DNA of 64,000 bases from a virus (Duplodnaviria; Caudoviricetes). Shown here piece by piece: positions 8,532 to 51,138 of the stretch. The position numbers and the translations under genes are program-made. Location of the stretch: the IMG/VR virus record IMGVR_UViG_3300021431_000126, positions 520-64,519 of that record. One strand, 5' to 3'. Under the pieces are notes generated by a model. It did no database searches, was not told the DNA's origin, and worked only from the letters and a program-made list of their open reading frames with translations. Numbering within the stretch: position 1 is the stretch's first letter; the number at the start of each line of letters is the position of its first letter.

Positions 8532-9092
8532 TTATCCTCTAAAATATTTGCCTGCATTATTATCTGACATATGAACAAAGGTTGTACACTCTAGGAATTT
8601 GTAGCAAACATATCCACTACAAAAAGAACTTGTCTTGCCGTCAAAACTAATCTTTTTATCAGGAATCAAAAACTGAACATCTGTTTTCATTTCTGCAAAC
8701 AAATTGCCTATTTCCTGATAGTTGAGAGCCATCATGTTCATAAGCATAACAAAAGGTTTATTCCACAAATAGAACTTTTTGAAAATGTCCAATTTTTTAC
8801 TAAAAGGTGGGTTGCTGACTGCAATATCCCACTTTGCAGGTTGATAAATAAAAAAATCTTTATTTTCAGAAATATGTGAGTGTTCAACCTGAAATCCGTA
8901 TTGCTTTAGAATTTGAACAAAGTTTGAAGATTCTAGGTCAAAAGGACACCAAACAATTGGTTGTCTTTTATTTTCCTTTTCAAAAGTTTTTGCCCAAACT
9001 TGTAAAAATGGCACAACAATTCTAACCAAACAACTTGGAGTGTTATAGTTATCAGCCTTGTTAAAAGCATGATTAAAACTCTTTTTCATCAT
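8532..9092 (-). CDS. Putative N6-adenine DNA methyltransferase (phage type)
   Basis: YNTP, VWCPFD, DFF, WDIAVSNPPFSKK (NPPF catalytic motif). Confidence 0.8.
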   Translation of the reverse strand: MMKKSFNHAFNKADNYNTPSCLVRIVVPFLQVWAKTFEKENKRQPIVWCPFDLESSNFVQILKQYGFQVEHSHISENKDFFIYQPAKWDIAVSNPPFSKKLDIFKKFYLWNKPFVMLMNMMALNYQEIGNLFAEMKTDVQFLIPDKKISFDGKTSSFCSGYVCYKFLECTTFVHMSDNNAGKYFRG

Positions 9093-13434: not shown

Positions 13435-14769
13435 ATGAGTTACGACATTAAAAAATTAAATGAAGTAAAATATTTCAAGCATAACCATATAATAATTCTA
13501 GCATACATGTGCCAATGGATTGCAGGAAAATATCAACCACTTCATCAAGAGTTTGATGGCAGAATGTATTATTGGTTTTCACTTCAGAAAATGGCTGAGG
13601 ATCTGTCCTTGTCATATCAACAGGTTCAACTTGCCTTGCGTAGATTAAAGAATCAAGATAAAAATGTTGATTATGTTACAGAGCCATTGGTGTATCAAAA
13701 AATTGATTATACTAATAATAGAATGTATCTTTCAGTTAATTTACCTGAGTTGAAAAATCTTATTGAATGCAAAAATGAATTGAAAGATTGCAGGATTAAA
13801 ATTGACACACTTCAGAAAAGAATTGGTGGAATGGGACTTTATACAAAGAGGATAGGAAAAATGGGAGCAGAAGCACTTTTTGATATTGAAAAACCTGCAT
13901 ATTGTGTTGAAGCAGACGCAATAGCAAAATTGATTTTGAGAAAATATCCTCAATATTTTTCTCATAGAATTCCTGATGAAAAATCATCTGCAACAAAAAC
14001 ATATGTTTCAATTTGTAGATCTATTGAGGATCTTTACAATGGCAGATTCATTCGTGAAAGAACTTTATGTGAAAACTTTTTGACTAATAAACAATTCAAT
14101 ATTGAGGGTTGGCAATCAAAAATTAAGGCTGTAAAGGGAGATTGGATCGCAGTCAAAAAATTGATTCTTGGTGCATTGAAGAATTTTGTTTTAATGCATG
14201 ATGAAGACAGAATGCCTTATAGTAAAGATTATTTACAGACCAATCTCAATCTTTGGTTTTATGATAATGTGTCGATTCAGGGTGAAGGTCAGTCACAATT
14301 TATTTTGTGCTTATTTGAGCCAGAATACACCAAAAAACACAATTCAGAAGTCAAGGCTGATAAAATCTTTGAAACACTTTCAAATACTGCTAAAAAGGGT
14401 GGAAATGAATTGTTTGAGATGAATACTTCAATGCCTGCTGGATTGTTTTGGGACAAGATAAAAGAAATGGTTGAATGGGGCAAGAGTGCTTTTGAGATTG
14501 AAGACAATATTCAATATTGGATTAGTAGTGCGAGTGAGTTGCCATCCAAGTTTGCAAGTTATTGCAGGGAAAATGACATCACTGTATCTCTAGCAACTGT
14601 TGATATAAAAAAGGCGGTAGAATCTAATGCCCCATGGACTTGGTTTGTAAAAGATGCCTGCATAAAACACGGATTGAATTCAAGCCTTGCAGAATGTGCA
14701 GATGAATCTGATATGATTGATTGTTATAAAAAATTAACATTTGATGATATGGAGTCAGTTGTTTTTTAA
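13435..14769 (+). CDS. Putative replication initiator (N-terminal wHTH)
   Basis: YYWFSLQKMAEDLSLSYQQVQLALRRL wHTH; first gene before MTase/DnaB; GAGGTG RBS before ATG 13435; AT-rich upstream region. Confidence 0.55.
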   Translation: MSYDIKKLNEVKYFKHNHIIILAYMCQWIAGKYQPLHQEFDGRMYYWFSLQKMAEDLSLSYQQVQLALRRLKNQDKNVDYVTEPLVYQKIDYTNNRMYLSVNLPELKNLIECKNELKDCRIKIDTLQKRIGGMGLYTKRIGKMGAEALFDIEKPAYCVEADAIAKLILRKYPQYFSHRIPDEKSSATKTYVSICRSIEDLYNGRFIRERTLCENFLTNKQFNIEGWQSKIKAVKGDWIAVKKLILGALKNFVLMHDEDRMPYSKDYLQTNLNLWFYDNVSIQGEGQSQFILCLFEPEYTKKHNSEVKADKIFETLSNTAKKGGNELFEMNTSMPAGLFWDKIKEMVEWGKSAFEIEDNIQYWISSASELPSKFASYCRENDITVSLATVDIKKAVESNAPWTWFVKDACIKHGLNSSLAECADESDMIDCYKKLTFDDMESVVF

Positions 14770-14779
14770 GAGGTTAAAA

Positions 14780-15489
14780 ATGATTAAATTATATAATCAG
14801 AATTGTAGGGAAATAATAAAAGATGTAAAACCTGAAAAATGTATTATTGTAACAGATCCGCCCTTTAATGTTGGTTATCATTATAATTCTTATAACGATA
14901 ATATGCCTGAAAAAGAATATTATGAAATGCTTGATGAAGTTTTACAAGGCAATTTTATAATCATTCATTATCCTGAAGAAATTTATAAATTTGCAATACA
15001 TAAAGGAATAGCACCACAAAAAGTTATATCTTGGGTGTATAATTCAAATACAGGAAAACAACACAGAGATATTGCATTTTTTAATATCAAACCTGATATG
15101 TCAAAAGTGCGACAGCCTTATAAAAATTTGACAGATAAAAGAATTATTGAAAGAATGAAATCAGATGTGGGGGGGCAAAACTTTATGATTGGTGGAACAT
15201 TAATCAAGTTAAAAATGTGAATAAAGAAAAAACAGAACATCCATGTCAAATGCCTCTTGAGGTAATGAAAAATATTATAGGCATTCTGCCTGAGGATTAT
15301 ACAATATTGGATCCATTTATGGGTAGTGGTACAACAGGTGTTGCCTGCAAATTATTGGGTAGGGATTTTATTGGAATTGAACTTGATAAAAAATATTTTA
15401 AGATTGCAGAACAAAGAATAAATAATGGATTTGTTCAAAAAGATGTTACTGATGAAAAATTAAGTTCATTGCCTTTATTCCTAGAATAA
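14780..15489 (+). pseudogene. Beta-class N4-C/N6-A DNA methyltransferase split by a frameshift at a G7 tract (15169-15175)
   Basis: VTDPPF in the 5' frame; AKLYDWWNINQVKN..HPCQMP..ILDPFMGSGTTG in the -1 frame. Confidence 0.85.
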
Positions 15490-17335: not shown

Positions 17336-18241
17336 GTGGAGAAAATGACTGAAAATGAGTTTATGTTGCAGGATAGAATTACAAAAATAAAATCAATCAA
17401 TGAAAAGTATGACTTGGAAAATAATGCATATGTTTCATTCTCAGGCGGAAAAGATTCAACTGTATTGCATTATTTACTTGATGAAGCACTTCCAAATAAT
17501 AAGATTCCAAGAGTGTATATTAACACTGGGATTGAATATAATTCAATAATAAAGTTTGTAAAAGAACTTGCGGAAACAGATGAAAGAATAATTATAAAAT
17601 CGCCAAAAATAAATATCAGAGATATGCTTGAAAAATATGGTTATCCATTTAAGAGCAAAAAGCATTCTCATGTATTGGCAATTTATCAGAGCAATGGAAT
17701 GAGCAGGAATCCGTCTGTATATTTGACTCAAACTGGTAGATATGGTTGCCCGCAAAAATTGAAATATCAATTCACTGAAGACTTCAAATTGAAAGTCTCT
17801 GAAAAATGTTGTTACAAATTAAAAAAAGAGCCTATGCATGAATTTGAAGTGGAATCTGGCAGAACAATATTCATGAGCGGTATGAGAGCCGATGAGGGTG
17901 GGGCAAGAATTTCATTGAATTGTATTTATACTGATAAAGATAATTCATTGAGAAAATTTCACCCTTTGTTACCTGTTAATGAAGATTTTGAAAAATGGTT
18001 TATAGATAAAATAAACAAAAGATTTGCTGATGTTTATTATCCACCATATAACTTTGAAAGAACTGGTTGCAAGGGTTGCCCATATAGCAGAAATCTTCAA
18101 AAAGACCTAGAAACAATGTCAGTGTTTTTACCTGCTGAAAGAAAACAGTGTGAAGTTATTTGGAAACCTGTCTATGATGAATATCGCAGAATTGGTTATA
18201 GACTTAAAAAAGAGGATGAATTCAAATTATTTGATTTTTGA
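17336..18241 (+). CDS. PAPS-reductase-family (PP-loop, Fe-S) protein
   Basis: VSFSGGKDS, CCYKLKKEP, GMRADEG, RTGCKGCP. Confidence 0.88.
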   Translation: MEKMTENEFMLQDRITKIKSINEKYDLENNAYVSFSGGKDSTVLHYLLDEALPNNKIPRVYINTGIEYNSIIKFVKELAETDERIIIKSPKINIRDMLEKYGYPFKSKKHSHVLAIYQSNGMSRNPSVYLTQTGRYGCPQKLKYQFTEDFKLKVSEKCCYKLKKEPMHEFEVESGRTIFMSGMRADEGGARISLNCIYTDKDNSLRKFHPLLPVNEDFEKWFIDKINKRFADVYYPPYNFERTGCKGCPYSRNLQKDLETMSVFLPAERKQCEVIWKPVYDEYRRIGYRLKKEDEFKLFDF

Positions 18242-21382: not shown

Positions 21383-22051
21383 ATGAAATTTGAAAATACT
21401 GAAGTATGGGGATTCAGACACGCATTAAGAGGCATGCGGAATCCTAAAGAATCTTGGGACAAGTCTGATACTGAATGGTTGCGGGGAACTTATATTGAGG
21501 CATTCAAAATTGGTAAAAATGATTTGAAACTTGCTCAAACCCTGATAAAAGCAGGTTCAGAGCATAGAAAGTTTATGAGGCAGATTTTTGTATCAGTTGA
21601 TATAACTGCCCCACTTTATTGGTGGAAAGAATTTGATACATACAAAGTTGGAACTGTAAGCAATTCAACTTCTACAATGCATAAATTGGCTGATACTCCA
21701 ATAACAAAAGAATGTTTTGAGATGGATGATTATTCAACAGATGAGATTCTTGCAGGTGAAAATATTGATGATATTTGGGAAAGCATTCTCACTGCTTGCG
21801 AGGGTTTGAGACAAATGTTTAATGAAACAAAAGACAAACGCTATTGGAAAGAATTGATAAGGTTGTTGCCTGAAAGTTGGTTGCAGAAAAGAACTGTAAC
21901 AATGGATTATGAAAACCTGCTTGCAATGTGTAGCAAAGGGCAAAGGCGATTCCATAAACTTACTGAATGGAGTGAATCATTTATTGATTGGGCAAGAAGT
22001 TTACCGTGTGCTCAGGAATTGATTTTTATTGATGAGGTTGATAATGATTAA
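21383..22051 (+). CDS. Divergent ThyX/Thy1-like protein
   Basis: HRKFMRQIFVSVDITAPLYWWKEFDTYKVGTVSNSTSTMH, LLPESW.Q.RT; canonical RHRxxxSxxxxSxR is replaced. Confidence 0.7.
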   Translation: MKFENTEVWGFRHALRGMRNPKESWDKSDTEWLRGTYIEAFKIGKNDLKLAQTLIKAGSEHRKFMRQIFVSVDITAPLYWWKEFDTYKVGTVSNSTSTMHKLADTPITKECFEMDDYSTDEILAGENIDDIWESILTACEGLRQMFNETKDKRYWKELIRLLPESWLQKRTVTMDYENLLAMCSKGQRRFHKLTEWSESFIDWARSLPCAQELIFIDEVDND

Positions 22052-22294: not shown

Positions 22295-22909
22295 ATGTTT
22301 TATATTTATGAAATTAAGAATCTGTTGAACAATAAAACCTATATTGGACAACGCAAGTGTCCTGCAAATAAGATTCCTGAAACAGATTCATACATAGGCA
22401 GTGGTAAAATTCTTCATCAAGCGTATGAAAAATATGACAAAAAGAATTTCACCAAAACAATTCTTGCTATTGCAGGAACAAAAGAAGTCATTGATGTTCT
22501 TGAAAAGGTTTTCATTCAACTTTATAGGGAACAAGGCAAGGCTGAATATAATATAACTGGTGGAGGTAGTGGTGGAAGTTTTAAGGGAATAAATAAGGGC
22601 AGAAAAGTTTCAGAAGAAACAAAAAGAAAATTGCGGAAAGCAAATGTTGGAAAACATCTTTCAGAGGAAACCAAAAGAAAAATACAAGAAAAACTTTTGA
22701 AAAATCCAAATAGAAAAGGTGTTGAAATTTCATTAGAAACACGTGAAAGAATGAGACAATCTCATTTGGGCAAAAAGCGTTCAAAAGAATCTATTGAGAA
22801 TCAAAGAAAAGCACAAATGGGTAGAGTTGTTTCAGCAGAAACACGTGAGAAAATTAGAATTTCAAATTTGCGTACAAAACATAAAATTCATTTGGAGGAA
22901 TTGAAATGA
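22295..22909 (+). CDS. GIY-YIG homing endonuclease with NUMOD3 repeats (no. 1)
   Basis: YIYEI..KTYIGQR, YNITGGG, SEETKRK repeats. Confidence 0.88.
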   Translation: MFYIYEIKNLLNNKTYIGQRKCPANKIPETDSYIGSGKILHQAYEKYDKKNFTKTILAIAGTKEVIDVLEKVFIQLYREQGKAEYNITGGGSGGSFKGINKGRKVSEETKRKLRKANVGKHLSEETKRKIQEKLLKNPNRKGVEISLETRERMRQSHLGKKRSKESIENQRKAQMGRVVSAETREKIRISNLRTKHKIHLEELK

Positions 22910-28173: not shown

Positions 28174-28869
28174 ATGATTATCAGATATATTTATAAGGTT
28201 ACATATAAACCTACAAATCAATTTTATATCGGAAAAAGAAAAGCAAGAGAAAATTGTTCACCTGAAGAGGATTTTGGAATTTATTATTTTACTAGTGCAA
28301 AAACAAATTCTTGGATTAAGAAAAGTTTGAAAAATAATCGTGAACTTTGGATTGTAGAATTTCTTCATGTTGATGCAAAGACCGATGAAGAACTTGCTGA
28401 ACAAGAGTTTGAGGAATTATCCAAATATTTTGATGGAACAAAAAAGGTTAATGAATTATGTTTGAATGAGAATAATTCAAAGAATTTTGATTTTTCAGGT
28501 CATATTCATTCTGAGGAATCTAAAAGAAAAATTGGTGAATCTCAAGTTGGTAATAAAAATCATTTTTATGGAAAACATCATTCAGATGAAACAAAAAAGA
28601 TTATTGGTGAAAAACAAAAAGGCAGAATGAAATCTGAGGCTGAAAGAAAACATCATAGTGAATTGATGAAAATAAATAATCCAATGAAGAATCCTGCAAA
28701 TAAAAATATTCATAAAATGGCTGTAAACAAACCTGAATACATTGAAAAGAAAAAGATTCAAACTGCGGGCAAGAATAATCCAAACTATGGAAATTATTGG
28801 AGTGAGGAACAGAAAAGAGCATTGAGTGAAAAATTAAAAGAAGTTTGGAAAAGGAAAAAAGAAAAATAA
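28174..28869 (+). CDS. GIY-YIG homing endonuclease with NUMOD3 repeats (no. 2)
   Basis: YIYKVT..FYIGKR, HSEESKRK, NHFYGKHHSDETK, NPNYG. Confidence 0.85.
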   Translation: MIIRYIYKVTYKPTNQFYIGKRKARENCSPEEDFGIYYFTSAKTNSWIKKSLKNNRELWIVEFLHVDAKTDEELAEQEFEELSKYFDGTKKVNELCLNENNSKNFDFSGHIHSEESKRKIGESQVGNKNHFYGKHHSDETKKIIGEKQKGRMKSEAERKHHSELMKINNPMKNPANKNIHKMAVNKPEYIEKKKIQTAGKNNPNYGNYWSEEQKRALSEKLKEVWKRKKEK

Positions 28870-28927: not shown

Positions 28928-30139
28928 ATGATTAAAAGCATAGAACTGAAAAACATACAATCTCACGAAAATACAAAGATTGAACTTGATAAGGGAATCA
29001 ATTGTATTGTGGGAAGTAGTAACAATGGAAAATCGGCAATTTTAAGAGGGTTATATTGGGCAAGATACAATAGACCTTTGGGTGTAGATACACTTTGCTC
29101 ACACTGGGCACTCAATAAAAAGGGTGAACTGACTGATGAAATGTCAGTAACAATTGAGAATGAAAATGGAGTTGTTTGCAGGAAAAGAACAAAGGCTGAT
29201 AATCAGTACATAGTCAATGGTGAAGTTCTTAATGTTGTCAAGACAGATGTTCCTGCAGAGGTTGAGCAGATCCTTAAATTATCTGATACAAATGTTCAGA
29301 GACAACTTGATGCTCCATTCTTATTATCACAAACAAGCGGTGAGGTGGCCAAATACTTCAATCACGTTGTCCGCTTGGATATTATCGACAGAGTGCTTAC
29401 AAATGCTGAATCTTCAAGACGTAGAACAAAGGCTGATATTGAATCAACTGAAAAGATAATCAAAGAGCAGGAAAAGAAAAAGGAAAAATATGATTGGTTG
29501 GATTCTGTTGAGAAGTTATTACAGAAGTGGGACACTGTAAAAGAAAATAATGACCAATTAAGATCCCAATCTGAAAACCTGCAATCTGAATTGGAATCTT
29601 TTGAAGAAAATAAACAGAAAGTGGCTAAATATGTAAATATAGTGGCTCAAAAAGATAAATTGGAAACTATTTCAACATTGATTAAAAAGTCATCAGAAAT
29701 TGAAGATTTGTGTGGAAGTTTGGCCAATTCTTTGGAAATGTATAAACGGCATTCAGAAAAGATTGAAAAATTGAATAAGGTTATACAGCTGAAGAAGTTG
29801 ATTGAAGATGTTATGAAAGCAGATGGATCCAGTGCAGGATTGAGAATGAAAATTGCTGAATTGACTTTCAATCTTGATAAATTTAAGGCGGTGAAAATCT
29901 ATCCTGATTTTTCAGAACAGAAAAGGCTGATTGAAAAGATCGAAAAGTTGAATGAAAATAACCTGCAGGAAAAGGTGGATGAATTGAGTGAATCTATTCA
30001 AAATTACAATATTCAAAAAATGCATATTGAGGATTCAGCAAATGATATAAAATGCCTACAGGAACAATTGCCTGACGTTTGTCCAATTTGTGGTAGTCCA
30101 ATGAAAAATGGGATTTGTAAAAAAGAGGTGAAAAAATGA
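28928..30139 (+). CDS. SbcC/Rad50 N-terminal half (Walker A, coiled coil, Zn hook)
   Basis: LKNIQSH, GSSNNGKS, QRQLD Q-loop, terminal CPICG. Confidence 0.85.
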   Translation: MIKSIELKNIQSHENTKIELDKGINCIVGSSNNGKSAILRGLYWARYNRPLGVDTLCSHWALNKKGELTDEMSVTIENENGVVCRKRTKADNQYIVNGEVLNVVKTDVPAEVEQILKLSDTNVQRQLDAPFLLSQTSGEVAKYFNHVVRLDIIDRVLTNAESSRRRTKADIESTEKIIKEQEKKKEKYDWLDSVEKLLQKWDTVKENNDQLRSQSENLQSELESFEENKQKVAKYVNIVAQKDKLETISTLIKKSSEIEDLCGSLANSLEMYKRHSEKIEKLNKVIQLKKLIEDVMKADGSSAGLRMKIAELTFNLDKFKAVKIYPDFSEQKRLIEKIEKLNENNLQEKVDELSESIQNYNIQKMHIEDSANDIKCLQEQLPDVCPICGSPMKNGICKKEVKK

Positions 30140-30750
30140 TATTTTACATTTATGAAATTAAGAATCTGTTGAACAATAAAACCTATATTGGTCAACGCAA
30201 ATGTCCTGCAAATAAGATTCCTGAAACAGATTCATATATGGGCTCAGGTGATTTGATTAGAAAAGCAATTAAAAAATATGGTTTGCAGAATTTTTCAAAA
30301 TCAATTCTTGAATCAAATATTGGTTCTAAAAAAGAAGTTGATAAAAGAGAAATTTATTGGATTTCAAAATATAAAGAACAAGGTGGTGCTGAGTATAATT
30401 TATCAACTGGTGGCACAGGCGGAAATTTGGGTGAATATGTAAATAAACTGATTAAAAAATCTAAAGAAAATATTTCAGAAGAAACTAGACGAAAAATGAG
30501 TGAATCTGCTAAAAAGAAAATTTTTACAGAAGAACATAGAAGAAATATTGGAATTTCTGCTATGGGAAATAGGTCAAGAAAAGGTCAACATATTTCAGAA
30601 GAACAAAAGAAAAAACAAAGTGAAGCATTAAGAGGTAAAAATTTTACAATTGAACATAAGAAAAAAATTAGTGATGCTTTGAAAGGTCATAAAGGTTTTT
30701 TGGCTGGAAAGCATTGGAAAATTGTTGATGGAAAAAGAATTATATATTGA
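30136..30750 (+). CDS. GIY-YIG homing endonuclease with NUMOD3 repeats (no. 3)
   Basis: Same N-terminus as 22295; YNLSTGG; SEETRRKMSES. Confidence 0.88.
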   Translation: MIFYIYEIKNLLNNKTYIGQRKCPANKIPETDSYMGSGDLIRKAIKKYGLQNFSKSILESNIGSKKEVDKREIYWISKYKEQGGAEYNLSTGGTGGNLGEYVNKLIKKSKENISEETRRKMSESAKKKIFTEEHRRNIGISAMGNRSRKGQHISEEQKKKQSEALRGKNFTIEHKKKISDALKGHKGFLAGKHWKIVDGKRIIY

Positions 30751-31951: not shown

Positions 31952-32204
31952 AAAGGTAAATGAAATCAAAGGCTTGATCTCAAAGTGTGAAATTGAATCC
32001 GCAAAATCTCAGGGAATTATTGAAAACATTAAGAAACAGTGGAAAGCCGATTATGGAACTGATGATGAAAAAGAGATTGAAGAAAAGTTGCAGGAAATGA
32101 ATTCAGAACTCAAAAAGAGCAATGAACGGCTTGAAACAATTTACAACAAATTGGTTGGTTCATATGATTGGGAACAACTTGAAGAGGAAATGGGGGCAGA
32201 ATAA
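31941..32204 (+). CDS. Short coiled-coil protein (possible middle piece of split Rad50)
   Basis: Heptad pattern; lies between the two SbcC halves. Confidence 0.5.
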   Translation: MNIEKVNEIKGLISKCEIESAKSQGIIENIKKQWKADYGTDDEKEIEEKLQEMNSELKKSNERLETIYNKLVGSYDWEQLEEEMGAE

Positions 32205-32539
32205 TGCTTGACTTGAATTACCTGTCCAAAATATCTTATGAGATCTCAAAGCAGAGACAGAACAATGGTGCATTTAAGGAAACAACAACGGCTTCATTGC
32301 TTAAACATACCGCAACTGAGGTTGTAGAGGCATCTGAAGCATTTGATAAATTTCAATTTGCTATAAATAGTGAATTTGCTTTGGGTGATTATTTTGATGG
32401 ATTCACTAGTGAACTTGCAGACATTATTGTTTGTGTTCTTATAATTGCAGGCAAGGAAAATGTTGACATTGAAAAGGCTGTTTTGAAATGTATGGAAAAG
32501 AACAGAAAAAGAGCAGAGGGCATTGGAGATAAATTATGA
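32204..32539 (+). CDS. MazG-like NTP pyrophosphohydrolase
   Basis: TEVVEASE...ELADIIV...KCMEKNRKR. Confidence 0.8.
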   Translation: MLDLNYLSKISYEISKQRQNNGAFKETTTASLLKHTATEVVEASEAFDKFQFAINSEFALGDYFDGFTSELADIIVCVLIIAGKENVDIEKAVLKCMEKNRKRAEGIGDKL

Positions 32540-33162
32540 TTGAAAGAGTTGAAAAAATTCGGCAGATGTTCCTGCAATCTAAAGGAATGTTAAAGCAGAT
32601 TGATTCAGATCTTACTGAGAATCAGAACAAATTGCTGGCTTTGAATAACAGAATAAAACTGTTGGAACAGGCTCAGGCATTTTTGCAGAAAATTGCTCAA
32701 GACACTCAATCACAACTTAAATTTCAAATTGAGGATATAGTCAATTTGGCACTTGAAACTTGTTTTCCAAATGAGTATATTTTTCAACTTCAGTTCACGA
32801 TTGCTAGAGGTAAGACAGACGCAGAGTTGGTATTTTTATCTCAGAAGACAAACAGACCAATTGACCCTATGAATGCAAGTGGCGGTGGCGTTGTAGATAT
32901 TACTTCATTTGCCTTGCGCATTGCTTCATATGTTTTAGAGCAGGGAACAGATAATGTAATTATCCTTGATGAGCCGATGAAATTTGTCAGTAAAGATCTG
33001 CAGGCAAGAGTTGGTGACATTTTGAAAACCTTGTCTGAAAAACTTGGATTGCAGATCCTTATGGTAACACATATCACTGAAATGATTGATATTGCGGACA
33101 AAGTTTTTGAAGTGAAAAAGAATCCTGACGGCAGAAGTGTTGTAAAAGTTAGAAAAAATTAA
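32536..33162 (+). CDS. SbcC/Rad50 C-terminal half (signature, Walker B)
   Basis: ASGGG signature, IILDEP Walker B, MVTH H-loop. Confidence 0.85.
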   Translation: MIERVEKIRQMFLQSKGMLKQIDSDLTENQNKLLALNNRIKLLEQAQAFLQKIAQDTQSQLKFQIEDIVNLALETCFPNEYIFQLQFTIARGKTDAELVFLSQKTNRPIDPMNASGGGVVDITSFALRIASYVLEQGTDNVIILDEPMKFVSKDLQARVGDILKTLSEKLGLQILMVTHITEMIDIADKVFEVKKNPDGRSVVKVRKN

Positions 33163-35848: not shown

Positions 35849-35898
35849 AGTATACAAAATTTATTTTTAATCCTATAATAAAAACAGAGGTAAAACAG

Positions 35899-36183
35899 AT
35901 GGATGATTTTGATGAATTATTTATGGAAATGCAGGGTGAGGAAAAGCCTGAAGAATTTCCAAATTTGCCTGCTGAGTTGCAGGGAAAAGATCTGACACCA
36001 GATGAGACAGAAAAGTTGAAAAATGACTTTCCAACTTTGCGTGATTATATCACAATCTCATTCAATCGTGAGCAGACAAAAGAACTTGCAGAACTGTTGG
36101 GTGTTCCAATGCTTGATCCAAAGAAAAAGAACACATATACATTTGATGAATTGAAAGGAATGAAGACATATGGATTATTATAG
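35899..36183 (+). CDS. Acidic hypothetical protein, first gene of the modification cluster
   Basis: Follows an AATCCTATAATAAA promoter; overlaps the radical SAM start. Confidence 0.65.
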   Translation: MDDFDELFMEMQGEEKPEEFPNLPAELQGKDLTPDETEKLKNDFPTLRDYITISFNREQTKELAELLGVPMLDPKKKNTYTFDELKGMKTYGLL

Positions 36184-37435
36184 TTCACCAAGATGGACTG
36201 CTGAAATTGCAGATTGTTCCATGCCAATGACAATGGATACATATTCAAATTGTTCTTATAAATGTCAGTATTGTTTCAGTCAGTTCCAGCGTGGAATTGG
36301 AGATGGAAAAGACGCTTATTTGGCAAATGAGGTCAAATGGGTAAATCCTGAGAAGTTCAAAAAGATCTTCACTGAGCCTGACAAGAGTCAGTTTGGTCAG
36401 TATGTAAAAGCACGCAAGGCAATGCAGTGGGGTGGACTTTCTGACCAGTTCGATGAGAATGAAAGAAAATATGGAAAAACACTTGAGTTGTTACGTTGGA
36501 TGAGAAAAAACGTGCCTGACATGCCAATTTCATTTTCAACTAAAGCAACTTGGTGGCTTGATGACCCTAGATATGTAGAGTTGTTCAAGGACAATCCGCT
36601 GTGGAATTGTAAATTTTCAATTATCACTTTGGATGAAGAAAAGGCAAGAATCATTGAGGCTGGAGTTGATTCACCAAAGAAAAGACTTGAAGCAATCGAG
36701 AAGTATGCCAAGTTGAATGCAGGCGGTGCGACATTAAGATTGCGACCGTTCATTATTGGAATTACTACACCAACATACCTTGATTTGATCCGTGAAGCAG
36801 GAAATAGAGGTGCGACAGCATTGAGCACAGAATTCTTCTGCGTTGAAAGACGTTCAAATTTGTTGAAAGAAAAATTCCACTTTTTCAATGAACTCTGCGG
36901 ATTTGATTTGTATAAGTTCTATGAAAAATATTCAGTTCAGCAGGGTTATATGCGACTGAACAGAAAAATTAAAGAGCCATTTGTCAAGAATATGAAAGAG
37001 GAATGTGAAAAAATTGGTATGAGATTCTATGTCTCAGACGCACATTTCAAAGAATGTTCCTGCAACGGCTCATGCTGTGGATTGCCTGAAACTTGGAATT
37101 ATTCAAGAGGGCAGTGGTGTCAGGCTTTAATGTTAGCAAAGAAAAATGGCAAAGTAACTTATTCAGAAGTCAAGGGTGACATTGATAAGTATTTGTCAGG
37201 ATTCCAGCGACAAAGGGCAGAGGGATTCAACAAGGGTGGAGCAAGCACAAGGGCAAAGTTCAGCGGTATGTCTATGGCTGACTATATGCGTTGGTTGTGG
37301 AATAATCCAAACAATGGACAATCACCTTATACTCTTTTTGAGGGTGTCTTGTATCCTGTGGGCAATGATGCAAATGGCGACTTGATATATGAATATCAGG
37401 AAAACAGAACATTTGTGCCGATTGAAAATAAATAG
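36170..37435 (+). CDS. Radical SAM protein (spore-photoproduct-lyase-like fold) with extra C-terminal Cys cluster
   Basis: CSYKCQYC (CxxxCxxC), STK, LRLRPFI, CSCNGSCCG. Confidence 0.88.
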   Translation: MDYYSSPRWTAEIADCSMPMTMDTYSNCSYKCQYCFSQFQRGIGDGKDAYLANEVKWVNPEKFKKIFTEPDKSQFGQYVKARKAMQWGGLSDQFDENERKYGKTLELLRWMRKNVPDMPISFSTKATWWLDDPRYVELFKDNPLWNCKFSIITLDEEKARIIEAGVDSPKKRLEAIEKYAKLNAGGATLRLRPFIIGITTPTYLDLIREAGNRGATALSTEFFCVERRSNLLKEKFHFFNELCGFDLYKFYEKYSVQQGYMRLNRKIKEPFVKNMKEECEKIGMRFYVSDAHFKECSCNGSCCGLPETWNYSRGQWCQALMLAKKNGKVTYSEVKGDIDKYLSGFQRQRAEGFNKGGASTRAKFSGMSMADYMRWLWNNPNNGQSPYTLFEGVLYPVGNDANGDLIYEYQENRTFVPIENK

Positions 37436-37489
37436 TTGAATCTATCCTGCAACTTTAATTAGTTGCAGGATTTTTTATTGAGGATTAAA

Positions 37490-38431
37490 ATGGACAGAAT
37501 CAAAGATTTTATTTTATTTCATAACAAGTCTTGTACGGCAGATTCCATTGTTTTGCCGTTGAAAAAATATTGTGAATTGAAAGGATATTCAAAAAAAGAA
37601 TTGGAGCAGGTGAACATATTTTATGCCCTGACCTATTGCACAGCCTCAACTATTATCTTAATGAATAAACTTGATGAGTTGAAAAAGAATCCTGACGACT
37701 TTTGGAAAAACAACAAAAATACACTGTTATTTCAGTCAGACAGAAAATATGTCAAGATGAATGATATGTTTGTTTCTGCGTGGCAGGATTTTGCGGAAAA
37801 GCACATATTTGAGCAATTAGATAAGCAAGATGTAATAGATGTTGAGCAGGCAATTAAGATAGTGCAGGGTGTAAAATACTTTGGCAGATTCTCAGCATTT
37901 TTATTCCTAGAATGTTATTGCTGTCTTTTTGATAAAGCCTGCAAGAATAATAAATTGGATTGGCAAAATGGAAATACAGTTACATCAGGAATGTTCAATG
38001 TCTTGGGTGAAGATGAAAAAGCGAATTTGTGGGACAAAGAACATAAATTGAAGATTGATTCTGAATTGTTTGATAAATATGCAAATGATTTTTTGGAGCA
38101 GGCTGAAATTGGAAAAGAGTTGGCGGTGCTAGAAACTAATCTTTGCGCATATAGAAAATTATTCAAAAAATCAAGATACATTGGATATTATTCAGACAGG
38201 GTGCTTGAAGAATCTCATAAAGTTTTCAACAATTATCCCGCATATAAAAGCGAGTTGGAATTGCTTTTCAAGGCAAGGGAAATGGTGATTGCCCCAGAGT
38301 TTTTGGGTGAAAAAAATGGTTGGAATGGAATCAGACCTGAATTGAAAAAATTCTATCTTCAGACTGGTAGTTGGGATTGGACAAAACAAGTTGAGATTCC
38401 TATAATAAATGCAGGATTGTTTGAGGTGTAA
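37490..38431 (+). CDS. Amino acid:DNA transferase-like (aGPT-PPlase2/ADDT, HhH-glycosylase fold)
   Basis: FQSDRKY, FGRFSAFLFLE, ETNLCAYRKLFK.SRYIGYYSDR match my recollection of the family. Confidence 0.7.
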   Translation: MDRIKDFILFHNKSCTADSIVLPLKKYCELKGYSKKELEQVNIFYALTYCTASTIILMNKLDELKKNPDDFWKNNKNTLLFQSDRKYVKMNDMFVSAWQDFAEKHIFEQLDKQDVIDVEQAIKIVQGVKYFGRFSAFLFLECYCCLFDKACKNNKLDWQNGNTVTSGMFNVLGEDEKANLWDKEHKLKIDSELFDKYANDFLEQAEIGKELAVLETNLCAYRKLFKKSRYIGYYSDRVLEESHKVFNNYPAYKSELELLFKAREMVIAPEFLGEKNGWNGIRPELKKFYLQTGSWDWTKQVEIPIINAGLFEV

Positions 38432-38433
38432 AA

Positions 38434-39027
38434 ATGAAAAAATTGATAGCAATTTACGGAATAAACGGTGCAGGAAAAACAAGCCTTGTAAAGAATCTTT
38501 TAATGTCAGATTTTGTAGCAGAATCTGATGGTGATTTTCTTTTTGATTGTTTTGACTTCTTTGAAAAGCAATCTCAATACGGAACATACACTGTTTCAAA
38601 GGGTGGGAACTATGTTGCTGTTGGTGGATATTCTAACAAGTGCGGTGGGGCAGATACAATAAAAAGTGTAGACAATTATTTTGGTATGATTAATTATTTG
38701 TCTGAAAATTATCCTAATGCTTCACTTTGCGTTGAGGGTGTACTACAAAAAGCAATTGACGACTTAATCAATTGTTATGAGGATTTACAGAAAAAAGGTT
38801 ATGAGCCTTGCTTGGTCAAATTGGAAACATCTTTGGAGCAGGCAGTGGAGCGTGTAAAGAATCGCAATGGGCAAATGCCTGATGTAGAATGTATCAGAAC
38901 AAAGGTGTTGAACACAGGTAGACTTTTTAAAAAGTTGCAGGATTGCGGAAAGTTCAATTGCTATGTAATTGATACGGATAATAAAACGGCAGAGCAGGTG
39001 TATGAGGAATTTAAAAAAATAATCTAA
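38434..39027 (+). CDS. P-loop nucleotide/DNA kinase
   Basis: GINGAGKT Walker A, CGGAD, VEG, ERVKNR lid. Confidence 0.8.
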   Translation: MKKLIAIYGINGAGKTSLVKNLLMSDFVAESDGDFLFDCFDFFEKQSQYGTYTVSKGGNYVAVGGYSNKCGGADTIKSVDNYFGMINYLSENYPNASLCVEGVLQKAIDDLINCYEDLQKKGYEPCLVKLETSLEQAVERVKNRNGQMPDVECIRTKVLNTGRLFKKLQDCGKFNCYVIDTDNKTAEQVYEEFKKII

Positions 39028-40244: not shown

Positions 40245-40335
40245 CAAAAAATTTATAAAAAACTACTTTACTTTTTTATAATGTAGTTTATATTTATAAA
40301 TGTAGGTTGATAAAACCTGCAAGCGAGGTGTGAAA
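40245..40335 (+). promoter_or_regulatory. Early promoter cassette copy 7
   Basis: -35 40267-40272, -10 40289-40294 (16-nt spacer), hairpin, AAGCGAGG. Confidence 0.8.
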
Positions 40336-40772
40336 TGAGATTATGGCATAAAGATTTAATTCATTATTTACCTAGACAACAGTTGATTGCTCAGTGGCGT
40401 GAGTGTTGTGCTATTTGTTCTAATTGGGCAAATAAGGGAACACCAAATCATCTGCTTGTAAATAAGGTTTTGAAATATCCGTCAGTTCATTTCATGGAAT
40501 ACACTAGGTTGGTTATATCTGAAATGATTAAAAGGAATTACAAAGCAAGCACAACATCCTTGAATAATTTCATTGATAACTTCTGCAATTTTGGTGACCC
40601 TGATGAAACTATAATTGTTGCAAATGCTAAGTCTGTAATTTTTTCGGATTGGCATAATGACCGATATTTGAGGCAGTGTCTTTTCAACCTGCAGGAAAAA
40701 TATGACTGCGGTGGGATTCCTGAAGAAGAATGGAAAGTGATTGAAAATCATTTTGATGAATATTTAGATTAA
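40335..40772 (+). CDS. Pyrimidine-dimer DNA glycosylase / endonuclease V (DenV)-like
   Basis: MRLWH..L..LPRQQLIAQWREC..I, EMIKRNY, YL.QC..NLQEK. Confidence 0.8.
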   Translation: MRLWHKDLIHYLPRQQLIAQWRECCAICSNWANKGTPNHLLVNKVLKYPSVHFMEYTRLVISEMIKRNYKASTTSLNNFIDNFCNFGDPDETIIVANAKSVIFSDWHNDRYLRQCLFNLQEKYDCGGIPEEEWKVIENHFDEYLD

Positions 40773-48639: not shown

Positions 48640-48945
48640 ATGGATTTTGGAATGGCTATTATTGCCCTCAAAAGAGGTGAATGTGTAGCACGAAAAGGTT
48701 GGAACGGCAAAGGAATGTTTTTGACTTTGCAGGCAGGTTCAGAAGTTGCAGGAACAAACATGAGAAATGAGCCTGCAAAAAATTATTATGGTGACAGTAA
48801 AGTTAAAATCTGTCCTCATATTGATATGAAGTCTGCTGATGGTTCGTATGTAGTTGGTTGGCTTGCAAGTCAGACTGATATGCTTGCTGAGGATTGGGAA
48901 ATTGTAAAACCAATTCCATTCAAAGATGAAGTACATACAAGATAA
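48640..48945 (+). CDS. tad2: DUF2829 / Tad2-like anti-Thoeris sponge protein
   Basis: MDFGMAI.ALK.G..VARKGWNGKGMFL...WLASQTDMLAEDW. Confidence 0.82.
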   Translation: MDFGMAIIALKRGECVARKGWNGKGMFLTLQAGSEVAGTNMRNEPAKNYYGDSKVKICPHIDMKSADGSYVVGWLASQTDMLAEDWEIVKPIPFKDEVHTR

Positions 48946-49419: not shown

Positions 49420-51138
49420 ATGGATGATAAAGAATATTGGGAAACTAGAGCACGACAAAGGGAACTCATGGGTGAAAAATCGGCTGATGAATTACTTCAG
49501 ACGATGAAACCTGTTTATAGAAATTCTCTTGCTGAAATAAACAAAGAGATTGAAGCATTTTATGGTAGATACGCTGAGAACAATAATCTCACTTTGGCTG
49601 AGGTTCATAAAAGACTGAATCCAAAAGAATTGAGATCAGCCAAAGAGGAAATAAAAAAATATTATGACGCTGTGGACAAATTGGCTAGGGATAAAGATGG
49701 CCATGTTGATGTCACTTTGCTTCAGAAATACAAAGATGAATTAAGGCTATTATCTGCAAGGGCATATATGAGCCGATTAGATGAATTGAAAACTGGCTTG
49801 CGGAATATTACTGTCAATTTAGGCATAAAAGAATCTGAGGCATATTATCAAACCTTGTCCAAACTTTATTCTGATAATTATAAAAAGACCAATTTTGACA
49901 TTGACAAGTTTTTAGGATTCTCAACTGGGTTTGAAGGCTTGAACTATAAGCAATTAAATTCCGCTATTCATCAGCGTTGGCTTGGTATGAACTTTTCAGA
50001 TCGTATTTGGAATAATAAAGGGAAGTTGCTTGACCAAATAAATACAACCTTTTTGCAGGGAGTTGCTCAAGGTCATAACCCTAGAAAAATAGCAGAATCT
50101 ATGGCCAAAAATATGGGTACATCTTATTACAATTGTGAAAGGTTAGCAAGGACAGAATGTGCTCATATTGCAGGTGAAGCAACTTTGCAGGGATACAAGG
50201 ACAGAGGCACTGAAAAATATAAATATGATGCAACACTTGACGATAGAACAAGTGACATTTGTCAATCCTTAGATGGTGAAGTGTTCGATGTAAAAGAGGC
50301 GCAAGCAGGTGTAAATTATCCGCCAATGCATCCAAATTGCCGTTCAACAACCATTCCTTATTTTGAACCTGACGACATAGACAAAATGTTTGATGAGGCT
50401 CAGAGGGTTGCCCGCAATGATGACGGTGAATTGTATTATGTTCCTGCAAGTATGGACTATAAACAATGGCAAGAAATGACTAGTCATAAACCAACATATG
50501 ATCCTGATGATATTCCAGATGGATTCGTGGTTGGGGTAGATGTTCACAACAAATTAAATGATTTGGATTCTAATACCAAAGTTGATAAACTTTATGATAA
50601 TTATTCAAAATATAAAAAGGATGAACTTGAAGCAATAGATGAATATGTCAGAAAATTAGATGGCGTTGATATGAATAAAAAATTGAATAATAATCAATTG
50701 AATGATTTGTCTCAAGGTCAAATTGATGACATTATGATGAAACTTGATAAAGCATTATTGCGGAATAGAACAAGTCATGATATGGTTGTCATAAGAGCCT
50801 TAAAAGATTATAATTTGGAATGGATGTTCAATTCCGCACAAATTGAACAACTTAAAAATTATAACTTAGATTCTTTGGGTTATGGCAGGAAATGGAAACA
50901 AAACGGATTCATGTCAACTTCTTGGAGTCAAAACAACTCTGTAAAACAATGCGATTTGTATTTGTTAATAAATATTCCAAAGGGCACACCTGTTATTCCT
51001 ATGAATTCAAAGGTGAATAAAATGGGAATGAAGAGTGAAAAGGAATTGCTATTTGGAAGAGGTTACACAATTGTTAGCACTGGAAAAGCAAGGACAATCG
51101 ATGGAAAAAATTATTTGATTGTCAATTTGAAAAAATAA
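49420..51138 (+). CDS. MuF/SPP1 gp7 minor head protein with C-terminal ADP-ribosyltransferase domain
   Basis: RLARTE, ATLDDRTSDIC, PPMHPNCRS; then VVIRAL, GFMSTS, SEKELLFGRG (R-STS-ExE). Confidence 0.88.
   Translation: MDDKEYWETRARQRELMGEKSADELLQTMKPVYRNSLAEINKEIEAFYGRYAENNNLTLAEVHKRLNPKELRSAKEEIKKYYDAVDKLARDKDGHVDVTLLQKYKDELRLLSARAYMSRLDELKTGLRNITVNLGIKESEAYYQTLSKLYSDNYKKTNFDIDKFLGFSTGFEGLNYKQLNSAIHQRWLGMNFSDRIWNNKGKLLDQINTTFLQGVAQGHNPRKIAESMAKNMGTSYYNCERLARTECAHIAGEATLQGYKDRGTEKYKYDATLDDRTSDICQSLDGEVFDVKEAQAGVNYPPMHPNCRSTTIPYFEPDDIDKMFDEAQRVARNDDGELYYVPASMDYKQWQEMTSHKPTYDPDDIPDGFVVGVDVHNKLNDLDSNTKVDKLYDNYSKYKKDELEAIDEYVRKLDGVDMNKKLNNNQLNDLSQGQIDDIMMKLDKALLRNRTSHDMVVIRALKDYNLEWMFNSAQIEQLKNYNLDSLGYGRKWKQNGFMSTSWSQNNSVKQCDLYLLINIPKGTPVIPMNSKVNKMGMKSEKELLFGRGYTIVSTGKARTIDGKNYLIVNLKK

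Follow-up and report, generated by a model that had tools for sequence, protein, structure and literature searches.

The four-gene block at 35899-39027 of a 64,000-nucleotide stretch of caudoviricete DNA (hereafter the window) is probably a cassette for the hypermodification of thymidine after replication, in which a radical SAM enzyme makes 5-hmdU without O2 and a kinase and an amino acid:DNA transferase (ADDT/AADT) follow. The broader proposition is that the family of this enzyme (c0) hydroxylates 5-methylpyrimidines (thymine) on dsDNA independently of O2, as an anaerobic analogue of TET/JBP that works with a ParB-like partner and supplies hypermodification with amino acids or sugars in thousands of phages from gut and rumen; we regard it as evenly poised between right and wrong. 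To our knowledge, every described pathway draws its 5hmU either from a folate-dependent ThyA-type dUMP hydroxymethylase, which acts on the nucleotide pool before replication, or from an O2-dependent Fe/2-oxoglutarate enzyme of the TET/JBP (5mYOX) type, which acts on the polymer after it, and we know of no other routes to 5-hydroxymethylpyrimidines in DNA.

The window, from a gut or rumen phage, belongs to record IMGVR_UViG_3300021431_000126, which is 64,519 bp long and has a CheckV completeness of 99 per cent. The four-gene block delineated in the original prediction was recovered intact, with all four ORFs on the + strand (Table 1). Its first two genes overlap by 14 nt and its last two lie 2 nt apart. 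The further claim that the block is co-transcribed behind its own promoter survives only in part: this close spacing and a promoter-like site ahead of the block favour it, whereas a terminator- or attenuator-like hairpin between the second and third genes and a second promoter-like site speak against it. Promoter function of either site is inferred from the consensus alone. The hairpin stem holds a motif that is iterated in the genome (CCTGCA/TGCAGG). We considered CCTGCA as a cassette-wide target motif and rejected it, as its enrichment is lineage-specific and other carrier lineages show none. A Shine-Dalgarno sequence (GAGGA) and the N-termini of the family point to ATG 37490 as the most likely start of the ADDT gene, in agreement with the earlier assignment. 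The phage also has repair genes, among them a DenV-like gene (40335-40772).

Table 1. Positions of the genes and putative regulatory elements of the block (window coordinates).
Feature	Position	Strand	Basis or remark
94-aa protein	35899-36183	+	putative C-terminal docking module of ParB-like partner family (c1); ParB N-domain missing
SPL-like radical SAM enzyme (family c0), 421 aa	36170-37435	+	PF04055, AF2 model, context
ADDT/AADT, aGPT-Pplase clade 2-like, 322/313 aa	37463/37490-38431	+	PF18724, motif, fold
P-loop kinase, putative 5-hmdU DNA kinase (5-HMUDK) family, 197 aa	38434-39027	+	homologues
Promoter-like site TATACA-17-TATAAT, contains TCCTATAATAAA, ahead of block	35851-35879	+	consensus scan, 10/12 matches
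Promoter-like site TGGACA-17-TATAAT, within 3' end of ADDT gene	38378-38406	+	consensus scan, 11/12 matches
11-bp hairpin and U-run, between radical SAM and ADDT genes	37444-37471	+	about -17 to -18 kcal/mol (centroid -17.2), z = -4.1

The radical SAM protein matches PF04055 with 28.5 bits and has the cluster motif C28-x3-C32-x2-C35. The two cysteine motifs on which its identification had rested (CxxxCxxC and CSCNGSCCG) are both present, but conservation of the second across the family is limited to C302 and C303. In 194 family sequences, seven cysteines (C16, C28, C32, C35, C224, C302, and C303) are at least 99 per cent conserved. The six best PDB matches of the AF2 model (pLDDT 87) are all spore photoproduct lyase (SPL), which is the closest fold (PDB 4FHC and others; E = 3e-7, TM 0.45/0.55). 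Searches with the sequence were far less informative: NCBIfam returned weak matches, far below threshold, to the PA0069, Rv2578c, and mobile-pair-B families and none to the SPL-specific sequence model, phmmer and profile searches of PDB sequences gave nothing useful, and a tblastn search of 50,697 records of cultured phages, M6 among them, detected no homologue. The protein resembles SPL and is not filed as SPL. Its family comprises more than 2,400 clusters at 90 per cent identity, from gut, rumen, and cecum samples; the names given to it in databases are 'DNA repair photolyase' or 'hypothetical'.

SPL chemistry produces an allylic radical at the methyl group of thymine in DNA. With SplB the window enzyme shares the CxxxCxYC cluster motif, in which a tyrosine precedes the last cysteine, and, if our proposal holds, DNA as the substrate and passage through the thymine methyl radical. 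Unlike SplB, it has about 100 extra C-terminal residues and four additional invariant cysteines, is not placed in the SPL family by sequence models, and is found in a modification rather than a repair context. We propose, without any enzymology, that it is an O2-independent oxidase of the thymine C5-methyl group on DNA. We know of no radical SAM enzyme that hydroxylates the methyl group of a nucleobase, and this first step would be without precedent.

The 94-aa protein clusters with ParB-like proteins of 200-300 aa that adjoin the radical SAM gene in 44 loci and whose N-domains match ParB PHROGs. On sequence grounds we read it as the C-terminal docking end of this ParB-like partner, without the ParB N-domain; relatives have full ParB-like proteins, whereas the block keeps only the C-terminal module. 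Binding of the 94-aa protein (P0001) to the radical SAM enzyme is a prediction: modelling of the complex gave an ipSAE of 0.75 (best control, 0.00), a mark that 58 of 80 solved complexes reached, as did 2 of 110 mismatched pairs. The runs share at least 56 per cent of contacts, and partner pLDDT is at least 66. The predicted contacts involve residues 20-44 of the small protein, with the LPAELQGKDLTPD motif. The LPxELQG motif occurs in the ParB-like proteins adjoining radical SAM genes and is missing from those adjoining TET genes.

The third gene had been predicted to encode an HhH-fold ADDT-like protein rather than an ordinary repair glycosylase, and three lines of evidence uphold this. The protein exceeds the Pfam gathering threshold of PF18724 by a small margin (28.0-28.3 bits, cut-off 26.2), with a short relative (L029) scoring 21.4 bits. 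The three best PDB matches of its model (pLDDT 83) in a Foldseek search are 8z2n/8z2m, structures of the 5-PmdU glycinyltransferase gp46 (PUGT) of phage PaMx11 (prob 1.0, TM 0.52-0.62), whereas OGG/AGOG repair glycosylases reach only TM 0.31-0.40 with E > 0.6. Finally, the protein keeps an active-site motif, E224-T225-N-L-C228 (numbered from TTG 37463), of which C228 is invariant and E224 and T225 are at least 90 per cent conserved among 19 aligned family members. PaMx11 gp46 uses Glu243/Thr244/Cys247, and the metal bound by its Glu/Thr contacts thymine O4 (PMC11472151). From the identical spacing we infer that the E-T-x-x-C motifs of the two proteins, which provide the metal site and the catalytic cysteine, are equivalent in three dimensions. 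Their identity is only about 11-12 per cent, and the window protein has an additional C-terminal extension (residues ~250-322) that is common to only some relatives. A sequence-profile comparison gave no match to gp46, a profile search of PDB sequences gave nothing useful, and hhalign of the family with M6 gp51 detected no similarity; known transferases are linked to it only through Pfam model, motif, and fold. A locus scan with the single protein found no relatives, which were recovered instead as neighbours of radical SAM genes. The closest homologue in a cultured phage is that of Lysinibacillus phage vB_LfM_LysYB1 (Spounavirinae; 28 per cent identity, E = 3e-28), where, as in the window, a kinase follows; unlike the window, LysYB1 has ThyA-family enzymes nearby, a canonical hmdU supply, and no radical SAM partner.

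The kinase has a Walker A P-loop (GINGAGKTS, residues 9-17), as foreseen. Its own score against PF18748 (16.3 bits) is under the Pfam cut-off of 27, and its placement in the 5-HMUDK family is drawn from homologues. One full-length homologue of the protein (P0004) is the kinase domain of L073, a natural fusion of radical SAM and kinase (33 per cent identity, E = 1e-30), six of 24 family members match PF18748, and the family profile aligns with the proven kinase gp54 of M6 over 171 columns, nearly all of gp54 (98.5 per cent probability, E = 3.3e-15), establishing their homology. It also matches phrog_800, the family that holds M6 gp54 and that is misnamed 'terminase small subunit'.

According to the original prediction, a near-complete genome with such genes lacked a ThyA-like gene, a dCMP deaminase, and a PLP enzyme, and these absences were borne out. 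Neither ThyA, ThyX, Tet_JBP, nor dCMP deaminase was found in the whole record, Pfam scans of essentially all ORFs of at least 90 aa revealed no PLP enzyme, and flavin lyase, acetyltransferase, and dNMP kinase are absent from the phage. The profile search for ThyA or another hydroxymethylase was likewise negative beyond this genome: no ThyA, ThyX, or Tet_JBP match exceeded the curated cut-off in 38 related records that carry the enzyme family, 13 of which are at least 90 per cent complete. Controls for the Tet_JBP search were silent at first, and the search was validated by 10 clear matches in other TAGT loci.

The radical SAM gene is what 73 loci have in common, and its neighbours vary. In most loci it is adjoined by kinase and ADDT genes, sometimes with GNAT, and in others by the gene for the TET-associated glycosyltransferase TAGT (PF20691) with PIG-L, APH, or cytidylyltransferase genes. 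One locus of the latter type (L004) encodes a radical SAM protein 84 per cent identical to that of the window. Some loci have the radical SAM gene alone with ParB. Both the kinase-ADDT and the TAGT modules need a 5-hydroxymethylpyrimidine in DNA. Natural fusions join the radical SAM domain to HMUDK (L073, 648 aa; PF18748, 49.1 bits) and to TAGT (P0254 and P0256).

The relationship to TET/JBP was examined in 37 TAGT-bearing records, found with a six-member alignment because a 10-member one was too divergent. Radical SAM occurs in 20 of these records and Tet_JBP in 11, none has both, and most of the six with neither are fragments. The two enzymes take up one and the same gene position, the order being 'ParB-like - Tet_JBP - TAGT' in some loci and 'ParB-like - radical SAM - TAGT' in others. 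In several mutually unrelated phage backbones, the radical SAM gene is tightly linked, often with overlap, to genes of the ParB-like, kinase/ADDT, or TAGT type, and in about 10 loci a SAM synthetase gene flanks the cassette, as would be expected if SAM is consumed for each modified base. The relatives derive from MAGs of strict anaerobes living in rumen, cecum, and gut, a setting in which an O2-dependent oxidase could not work. The earlier idea of post-replicative thymine activation by an SPL-like radical SAM enzyme thus gains support from the alternative modules, the fusions, and the mutual exclusion with TET/JBP, while remaining a prediction. Checked computationally, none of the conditions named in advance as refuting it was fulfilled. 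A literature search for a link of radical SAM enzymes to TAGT, 5mYOX, or 5hmU formation found nothing relevant.

One of the closest characterized systems is that of Pseudomonas phage M6. Its 5-NedU pathway comprises an AADT (gp51), a PLP enzyme (gp52), a radical SAM isomerase (gp53), a 5-HMUDK (gp54), and a dUMP hydroxymethylase (gp58). Radical SAM, AADT, and 5-HMUDK genes lie together in both phages, the kinases are clearly homologous, and both radical SAM proteins are SPL-like. However, M6 has the ThyA-like gp58, a dCMP deaminase (gp65), and a PLP decarboxylase, all lacking in the window phage. The two radical SAM proteins align in the core only (hhalign; 174 columns, 18 per cent identity, 89 per cent probability, E = 2e-6) and differ in architecture, and gp53 is a tailoring enzyme, whereas we propose that the window enzyme takes the first step.

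The proposed logic of the cassette is that of the 5mYOX clusters. Phage thymine dioxygenases that depend on ParB have been demonstrated by experiment, and P-loop kinases and AADTs are associated with them (O'Toole et al. 2026; PMC13229309), and 5mYOX hypermodification clusters were noted previously (Lee et al. 2021; PMC8989533). Modification there is post-replicative, as we propose for the window, with a ParB-like partner and an oxidase followed by either a P-loop kinase and AADT or TAGT, and the ParB-like and TAGT neighbours belong to the same families whichever oxidase is present. The proposed window oxidase differs in being a radical SAM protein unrelated to the Fe/2OG jelly-roll, which would use SAM and a reductant where the dioxygenase uses O2 and 2-oxoglutarate. 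Its carriers are phages of strict anaerobes, and the window ParB partner is cut down to the 94-aa module.

Other readings of the block must be weighed against these data. The radical SAM enzyme may act on DNA upstream of the other enzymes yet make something other than 5hmU from thymine, for example oxidised 5mC or another activated C5-methylene species or adduct. Its chemistry is untested, a C5-cytosine methyltransferase is encoded a few kb upstream in 14 of the 38 related records, and phage 5mYOX enzymes can use both T and 5mC (PMC13229309); 5mC could be the substrate in some phages. As a general substrate we reject it for the window genome, which has no C5-methyltransferase, only one of the N6/N4 type, and many complete relatives lack a C5-methyltransferase as well. 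Additionally, HMUDK-type kinases and TAGT require a hydroxyl acceptor, and the conserved Glu/Thr of the ADDT correspond to the residues of gp46 whose metal site reads thymine O4. We therefore consider a product other than 5hmU unlikely. A repair lyase analogous to SPL, or an enzyme for RNA, protein, or a small molecule that is in this neighbourhood by coincidence, would fit the 'DNA repair photolyase' label, the structural matches to SPL, and the presence of the DenV-like gene; it is very hard to reconcile with the tight linkage across unrelated backbones, the fusions, the strict alternation with TET/JBP, and the lack of a match to any SPL-specific family model, and we give it almost no credence.

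A canonical M6-like pathway with a hidden supply appears improbable to us. Here hmdUTP would be made before replication, for example by the product of 21383-22051 together with a MazG pyrophosphohydrolase (32204-32539), which in principle could support such a route, and the radical SAM enzyme would be a gp53-like tailoring isomerase, in keeping with the SPL-like nature of gp53 and the hhalign match of the cores. The gene at 21383-22051, suspected of being a ThyX-like source of hmdUMP, does sit after the polymerase gene, and faint Thy1 signals remain (a 13.5-bit match of its homologue in L004, and Thy1 on 10 per cent of members of its look-alike cluster in the Atlas). Beyond these the suspicion found no backing: the protein lacks any Pfam domain, a search of the PDB with its profile recovers no ThyX structure, and its family, although very widespread and common in anaerobe phages without the cassette, is present in two of the 38 related records and absent from 36. 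Moreover, a radical SAM enzyme that accompanies TAGT, is fused to TAGT or the kinase, or stands alone with ParB has no amino-acid adduct to isomerise. The resemblance to gp53 is confined to the core, tblastn found no phage homologue, and neither a PLP decarboxylase nor a dNMP kinase is present.

Under our preferred reading, a post-replicative thymidine cassette, the pathway can be drawn in three steps, for which there are no nucleoside or enzyme data. The radical SAM enzyme, held by the ParB-family remnant, would abstract a hydrogen atom from the C5-methyl group of thymine, the inferred substrate, via the 5'-deoxyadenosyl radical. The allylic radical may then be oxidised, perhaps via an auxiliary Fe-S cluster on C16, C224, C302, and C303, and capture of the oxidised species by water would give 5-hmdU without O2; the radical mechanism, the cluster, and this product are all inferred. 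The 5-HMUDK homologue would next phosphorylate the hydroxymethyl group, and Cys228 of the ADDT would attack C6, expel the phosphate, and install an amine or amino acid as the inferred nucleophile, a transfer onto 5-PmdU that is likewise inferred, without enzymology. With PLP decarboxylase, flavin lyase, and acetyltransferase all missing from the phage, the pathway would end in a thymine adduct of an amino acid or amine that is not processed further and has the inferred role of shielding the DNA from host nucleases.

If this proposal is true, hydroxylation of a nucleobase methyl C-H bond with water would be a new type of radical SAM reaction and would account for the way in which hypermodified DNA is built by phages of strict anaerobes. 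It might also yield a 'TET-like' tool that needs no oxygen, for use in the chemistry of epigenetic sequencing. Anaerobic viromes would commonly contain DNA with base-J-like or amino-acid-modified thymines, and in a large share of the phage DNA of gut and rumen there would be modified thymines that escape present-day sequencing and annotation, with a bearing on the evasion of restriction and CRISPR, the design of phage therapy, and bias in virome sequencing.

The record containing this genome is 64,519 bp long and 99 per cent complete (CheckV); the window covers its bases 520-64519. The phage is contractile-tailed, has ~34 per cent GC and encodes a replication and recombination module (DnaB-like helicase, sliding clamp, PolB, clamp loader, gp32, UvsX/RecA, primase and ligase). 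Model searches of the full record returned no match to ThyA, ThyX, Tet_JBP or dCMP deaminase, and no PLP enzyme emerged when virtually all ORFs of at least 90 aa were scanned against Pfam. The original prediction, which placed a DNA hypermodification operon here and found no ThyA-like gene, dCMP deaminase or PLP enzyme to accompany it, is upheld on this point. It would have been undone by a hydroxymethylase in the missing part of the genome, but none turned up in the record. Among 38 viral records with radical SAM homologs (13 of them at least 90 per cent complete), there was likewise no ThyA, no Tet_JBP and no ThyX above the cut-off. The lack of a known hmdU supply is a property of the group; the absences of Tet_JBP, ThyA and ThyX depend on six-frame HMM screens.

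The block had also been described as four co-transcribed genes behind a promoter of their own. The four genes and a promoter-like site in front of them are present, but a hairpin with a U-run and an SD-ATG start beside it lie between genes 2 and 3, and there is a second promoter-like site. The block therefore resembles two gene pairs, each coupled in translation, more than it does a single simple operon. The reading frames of P0001 and P0002 share 14 nt, and P0004 starts 2 nt past the end of P0003. The genome is of lytic type, and the block is not close to the terminase.

Features of the phage genome (window numbering)
Feature	Position	Strand	Remarks
EcoRI-methylase-like, weak match	8532-9092	-	
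N6/N4 DNA methyltransferase signal	14741-15489	+	PF01555; two short adjacent ORFs
PAPS-reductase/PP-loop ATPase-like protein	17336-18241	+	phrog_424; inside replication module
Unannotated ORF	21383-22051	+	222 aa; no Pfam domain
GIY-YIG/NUMOD3 homing-endonuclease-like genes (n = 3)	22295-22909, 28174-28869, 30136-30750	+	Among replication/recombination genes
SbcC/AAA_23-like ATPase pieces	28928-30139, 32536-33162		
Promoter-like site	35851-35879	+	Precedes four-gene block
Four-gene block	35899-39027	+	P0001, 94 aa; P0002, 421 aa; P0003, 313/322 aa; P0004, 197 aa
11-bp hairpin + U-run	37444-37471		Between genes 2 and 3; z = -4.1
SD-ATG start of P0003	37490	+	Between genes 2 and 3
Second promoter-like site	38378-38406	+	
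Tad2-like (Thoeris anti-defence 2) domain protein	48640-48945	+	PF11195, 93.7 bits
Mu F-like head protein with C-terminal ADP-ribosyltransferase	49420-51138 (domain ~50590-51129)	+	ADPrib_exo_Tox, 69 bits

P0003, the putative amino acid:DNA transferase (ADDT), scores above the Pfam cut-off for PF18724. In its family alignment (n = 19), Cys228 is invariant and Glu224 and Thr225 are at least 90 per cent conserved. The identical E-T-x-x-C arrangement occurs in PaMx11 gp46, a solved 5-PmdU glycinyltransferase, in which Cys247 attacks C6 and a metal bound by Glu243 and Thr244 touches thymine O4 (PMC11472151). The gp46 structures were the first matches to the AF2 model of P0003 (pLDDT 83; probability 1.0, TM 0.56-0.62), with repair glycosylases far below them. 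An ordinary HhH repair glycosylase in this place had been named beforehand as a refutation, and P0003 does not score as one. The putative kinase, P0004, is by itself below the PF18748 threshold. Over its whole length, however, it aligns (E = 1e-30) with the kinase domain of a naturally occurring fusion that scores 49 bits on that model, and in a profile comparison the P0004 family matches M6 gp54, whose 5-hmdU DNA kinase activity is experimentally proven, with 98.5 per cent probability. For both proteins, the Pfam margin is thin and the assignment leans on family-level arguments.

Besides its CxxxCxxC triad, the radical SAM enzyme P0002 has four cysteines (C16, C224, C302 and C303) that are at least 99 per cent conserved among 194 family members (40-99 per cent identity). 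Spore photoproduct lyase (SPL) is structurally nearest, accounting for the top six PDB matches to the P0002 model (pLDDT 87); none of the SPL-specific sequence models was matched. In homologs from other metagenomes (P0245, P0251, P0252 and P0257), inteins or LAGLIDADG insertions split the enzyme straight after CxxxCxxC, and inteins right after the cluster motif are a pattern often met in essential active sites.

At 44 loci, the radical SAM gene adjoins a gene for a ParB-like protein of 200-300 aa, and P0001 corresponds to the C-terminal module of this protein family; in our phage the ParB partner is truncated. A full-length ParB-like partner is encoded at L029 (7942-8736). Its predicted complex with the radical SAM enzyme scored 0.75, versus 0.00 for the best control. 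Among solved complexes, 58 of 80 attain this mark, and among mismatched pairs two of 110. Agreement between runs covers at least 56 per cent of contacts, with a pLDDT of 66 or more for the partner. This modelling supports binding of P0001 to the radical SAM enzyme via the LPAELQG...PD motif.

We gathered 58 viral and 15 MAG loci via the radical SAM enzyme, clustered their neighbors and mapped them with HMMs; many loci are fragmentary, and all the evidence is computational. The radical SAM gene and a ParB-like gene are the constants. Most loci, including that of our phage, add ADDT and kinase genes, often with a GNAT gene. In others, the module is a TET-associated glycosyltransferase (TAGT; PF20691) accompanied by genes for PIG-L deacetylase, APH-like, cytidylyltransferase or rSAM-SPASM proteins. 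One of these is L004, a complete phage from the lineage of our phage, with a radical SAM enzyme 84 per cent identical to P0002. A third arrangement has no recognizable module. Both the ADDT-kinase and the TAGT modules are enzyme sets whose known target is a 5-hydroxymethyl group on DNA. The radical SAM domain is also fused naturally to an HMUDK (5-hmdU DNA kinase) domain in L073 (648 aa) and to TAGT in P0254 and P0256. In a TAGT-anchored search of 37 searchable records, the radical SAM enzyme was found in 20 and Tet_JBP in 11 (10 above the cut-off), with both in none and neither in six. The TET loci are ordered ParB-like, Tet_JBP, TAGT, and the slot and the flanking families match those of the radical SAM loci: the radical SAM enzyme is a non-orthologous displacement of TET/JBP. 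The MAG matches originate in the rumen, in buffalo and roe-deer cecum, and in rabbit and human gut, in bins assigned to Clostridia, Bacteroidaceae, Oscillospiraceae, Victivallis and Spirochaetaceae. These habitats are anoxic, and an O2-dependent dioxygenase would not work there.

Several further observations concern these neighborhoods. A SAM synthetase (MetK) gene flanks the cassette in ~10 loci; at L026 (6378-7427) and ~10 other loci, phage MetK lies immediately upstream of a ParB-ADDT-kinase-radical SAM cassette. Some cassettes (L007, L008, L022, L024, L044, L050, L051, L075; L006/L063, L054, L057) have a kinase without recognizable ADDT, or only the ParB-like and radical SAM genes with unidentified neighbors of 246-306 aa. 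Cassettes without recognizable ADDT may hold undescribed transferases, or stop at 5hmU or 5-PmdU. TAGT-type relatives encode a second, radical SAM-SPASM enzyme alongside the SPL-like one (L004, 11304-12281; L005, 11259-12257), and the two are joined in some proteins (P0246-P0248); its role is possibly sugar tailoring.

The best-supported reading is a three-step pathway of radical SAM enzyme (thymine to 5hmU), kinase and ADDT. In a first step that is wholly inferred, the ParB-family partner would hold the radical SAM enzyme while the latter turns DNA thymine into 5hmU with no O2 involved. Abstraction of hydrogen from the thymine methyl group, giving an allylic radical, is an inferred but chemically reasonable start; SPL chemistry involves the same radical. 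One-electron oxidation via an auxiliary cluster, bound by the four additional conserved cysteines, and then water capture would follow, again by inference. The kinase would next make 5-PmdU, on which ADDT would install an amine or amino acid. To our knowledge, there is no known radical SAM nucleobase hydroxylase.

Alternatively, the radical SAM enzyme could act upstream but use another substrate, e.g. 5mC, or yield another product; this is less likely here, as the genome has no C5-methyltransferase. We also considered whether the pathway is M6-like and draws on a hidden supply made before replication; the sole candidate source is the unannotated 222-aa ORF. However, its ThyX signals are merely faint, homologs occur in only two of the 38 carrier records, and the likeness of the radical SAM enzyme to the M6 gp53 isomerase is confined to the core. 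A repair or unrelated function of the radical SAM enzyme was considered as well.

Across positions 1-64000, CCTGCA/TGCAGG occurs 163 times (e.g. 37446-37451 and 37464-37469), against 23.7 +/- 5.2 expected. The enrichment is shared by the closest ADDT-type kin, L003 and L061 (10-16x), whereas TCCGGG/CCCGGA is enriched instead (~13x) in TAGT-bearing L004; the other carrier lineages showed no comparable motif enrichment. L061, from the rumen MAG RUG14257, is a contig 99 per cent identical to that of our phage. The 222-aa ORF belongs to a very large, highly conserved, unannotated family of anaerobe phages (>8,000 clusters, many 70-90 per cent identical); its members follow polymerase or replication genes in phages with Clostridium, C. 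difficile, Enterocloster, Fusobacterium and Desulfovibrio as hosts. The phrog_424 family has ParB-domain fusions in many phages.

Hydroxymethylase-dependent pathways are established and TET-linked contigs have been noted (Lee et al. 2018, 2021; the latter PMC8989533), and ParB-dependent phage thymine dioxygenases have been demonstrated and linked to P-loop kinases and AADTs (O'Toole et al. 2026; PMC13229309). No radical SAM enzyme in place of the oxidase is mentioned in these papers or in the 2023-2026 literature that we searched, and radical SAM enzymes figure in the current literature as tailoring isomerases only. The system is therefore read as a form of post-replicative thymidine hypermodification whose enzyme chemistry is potentially new.
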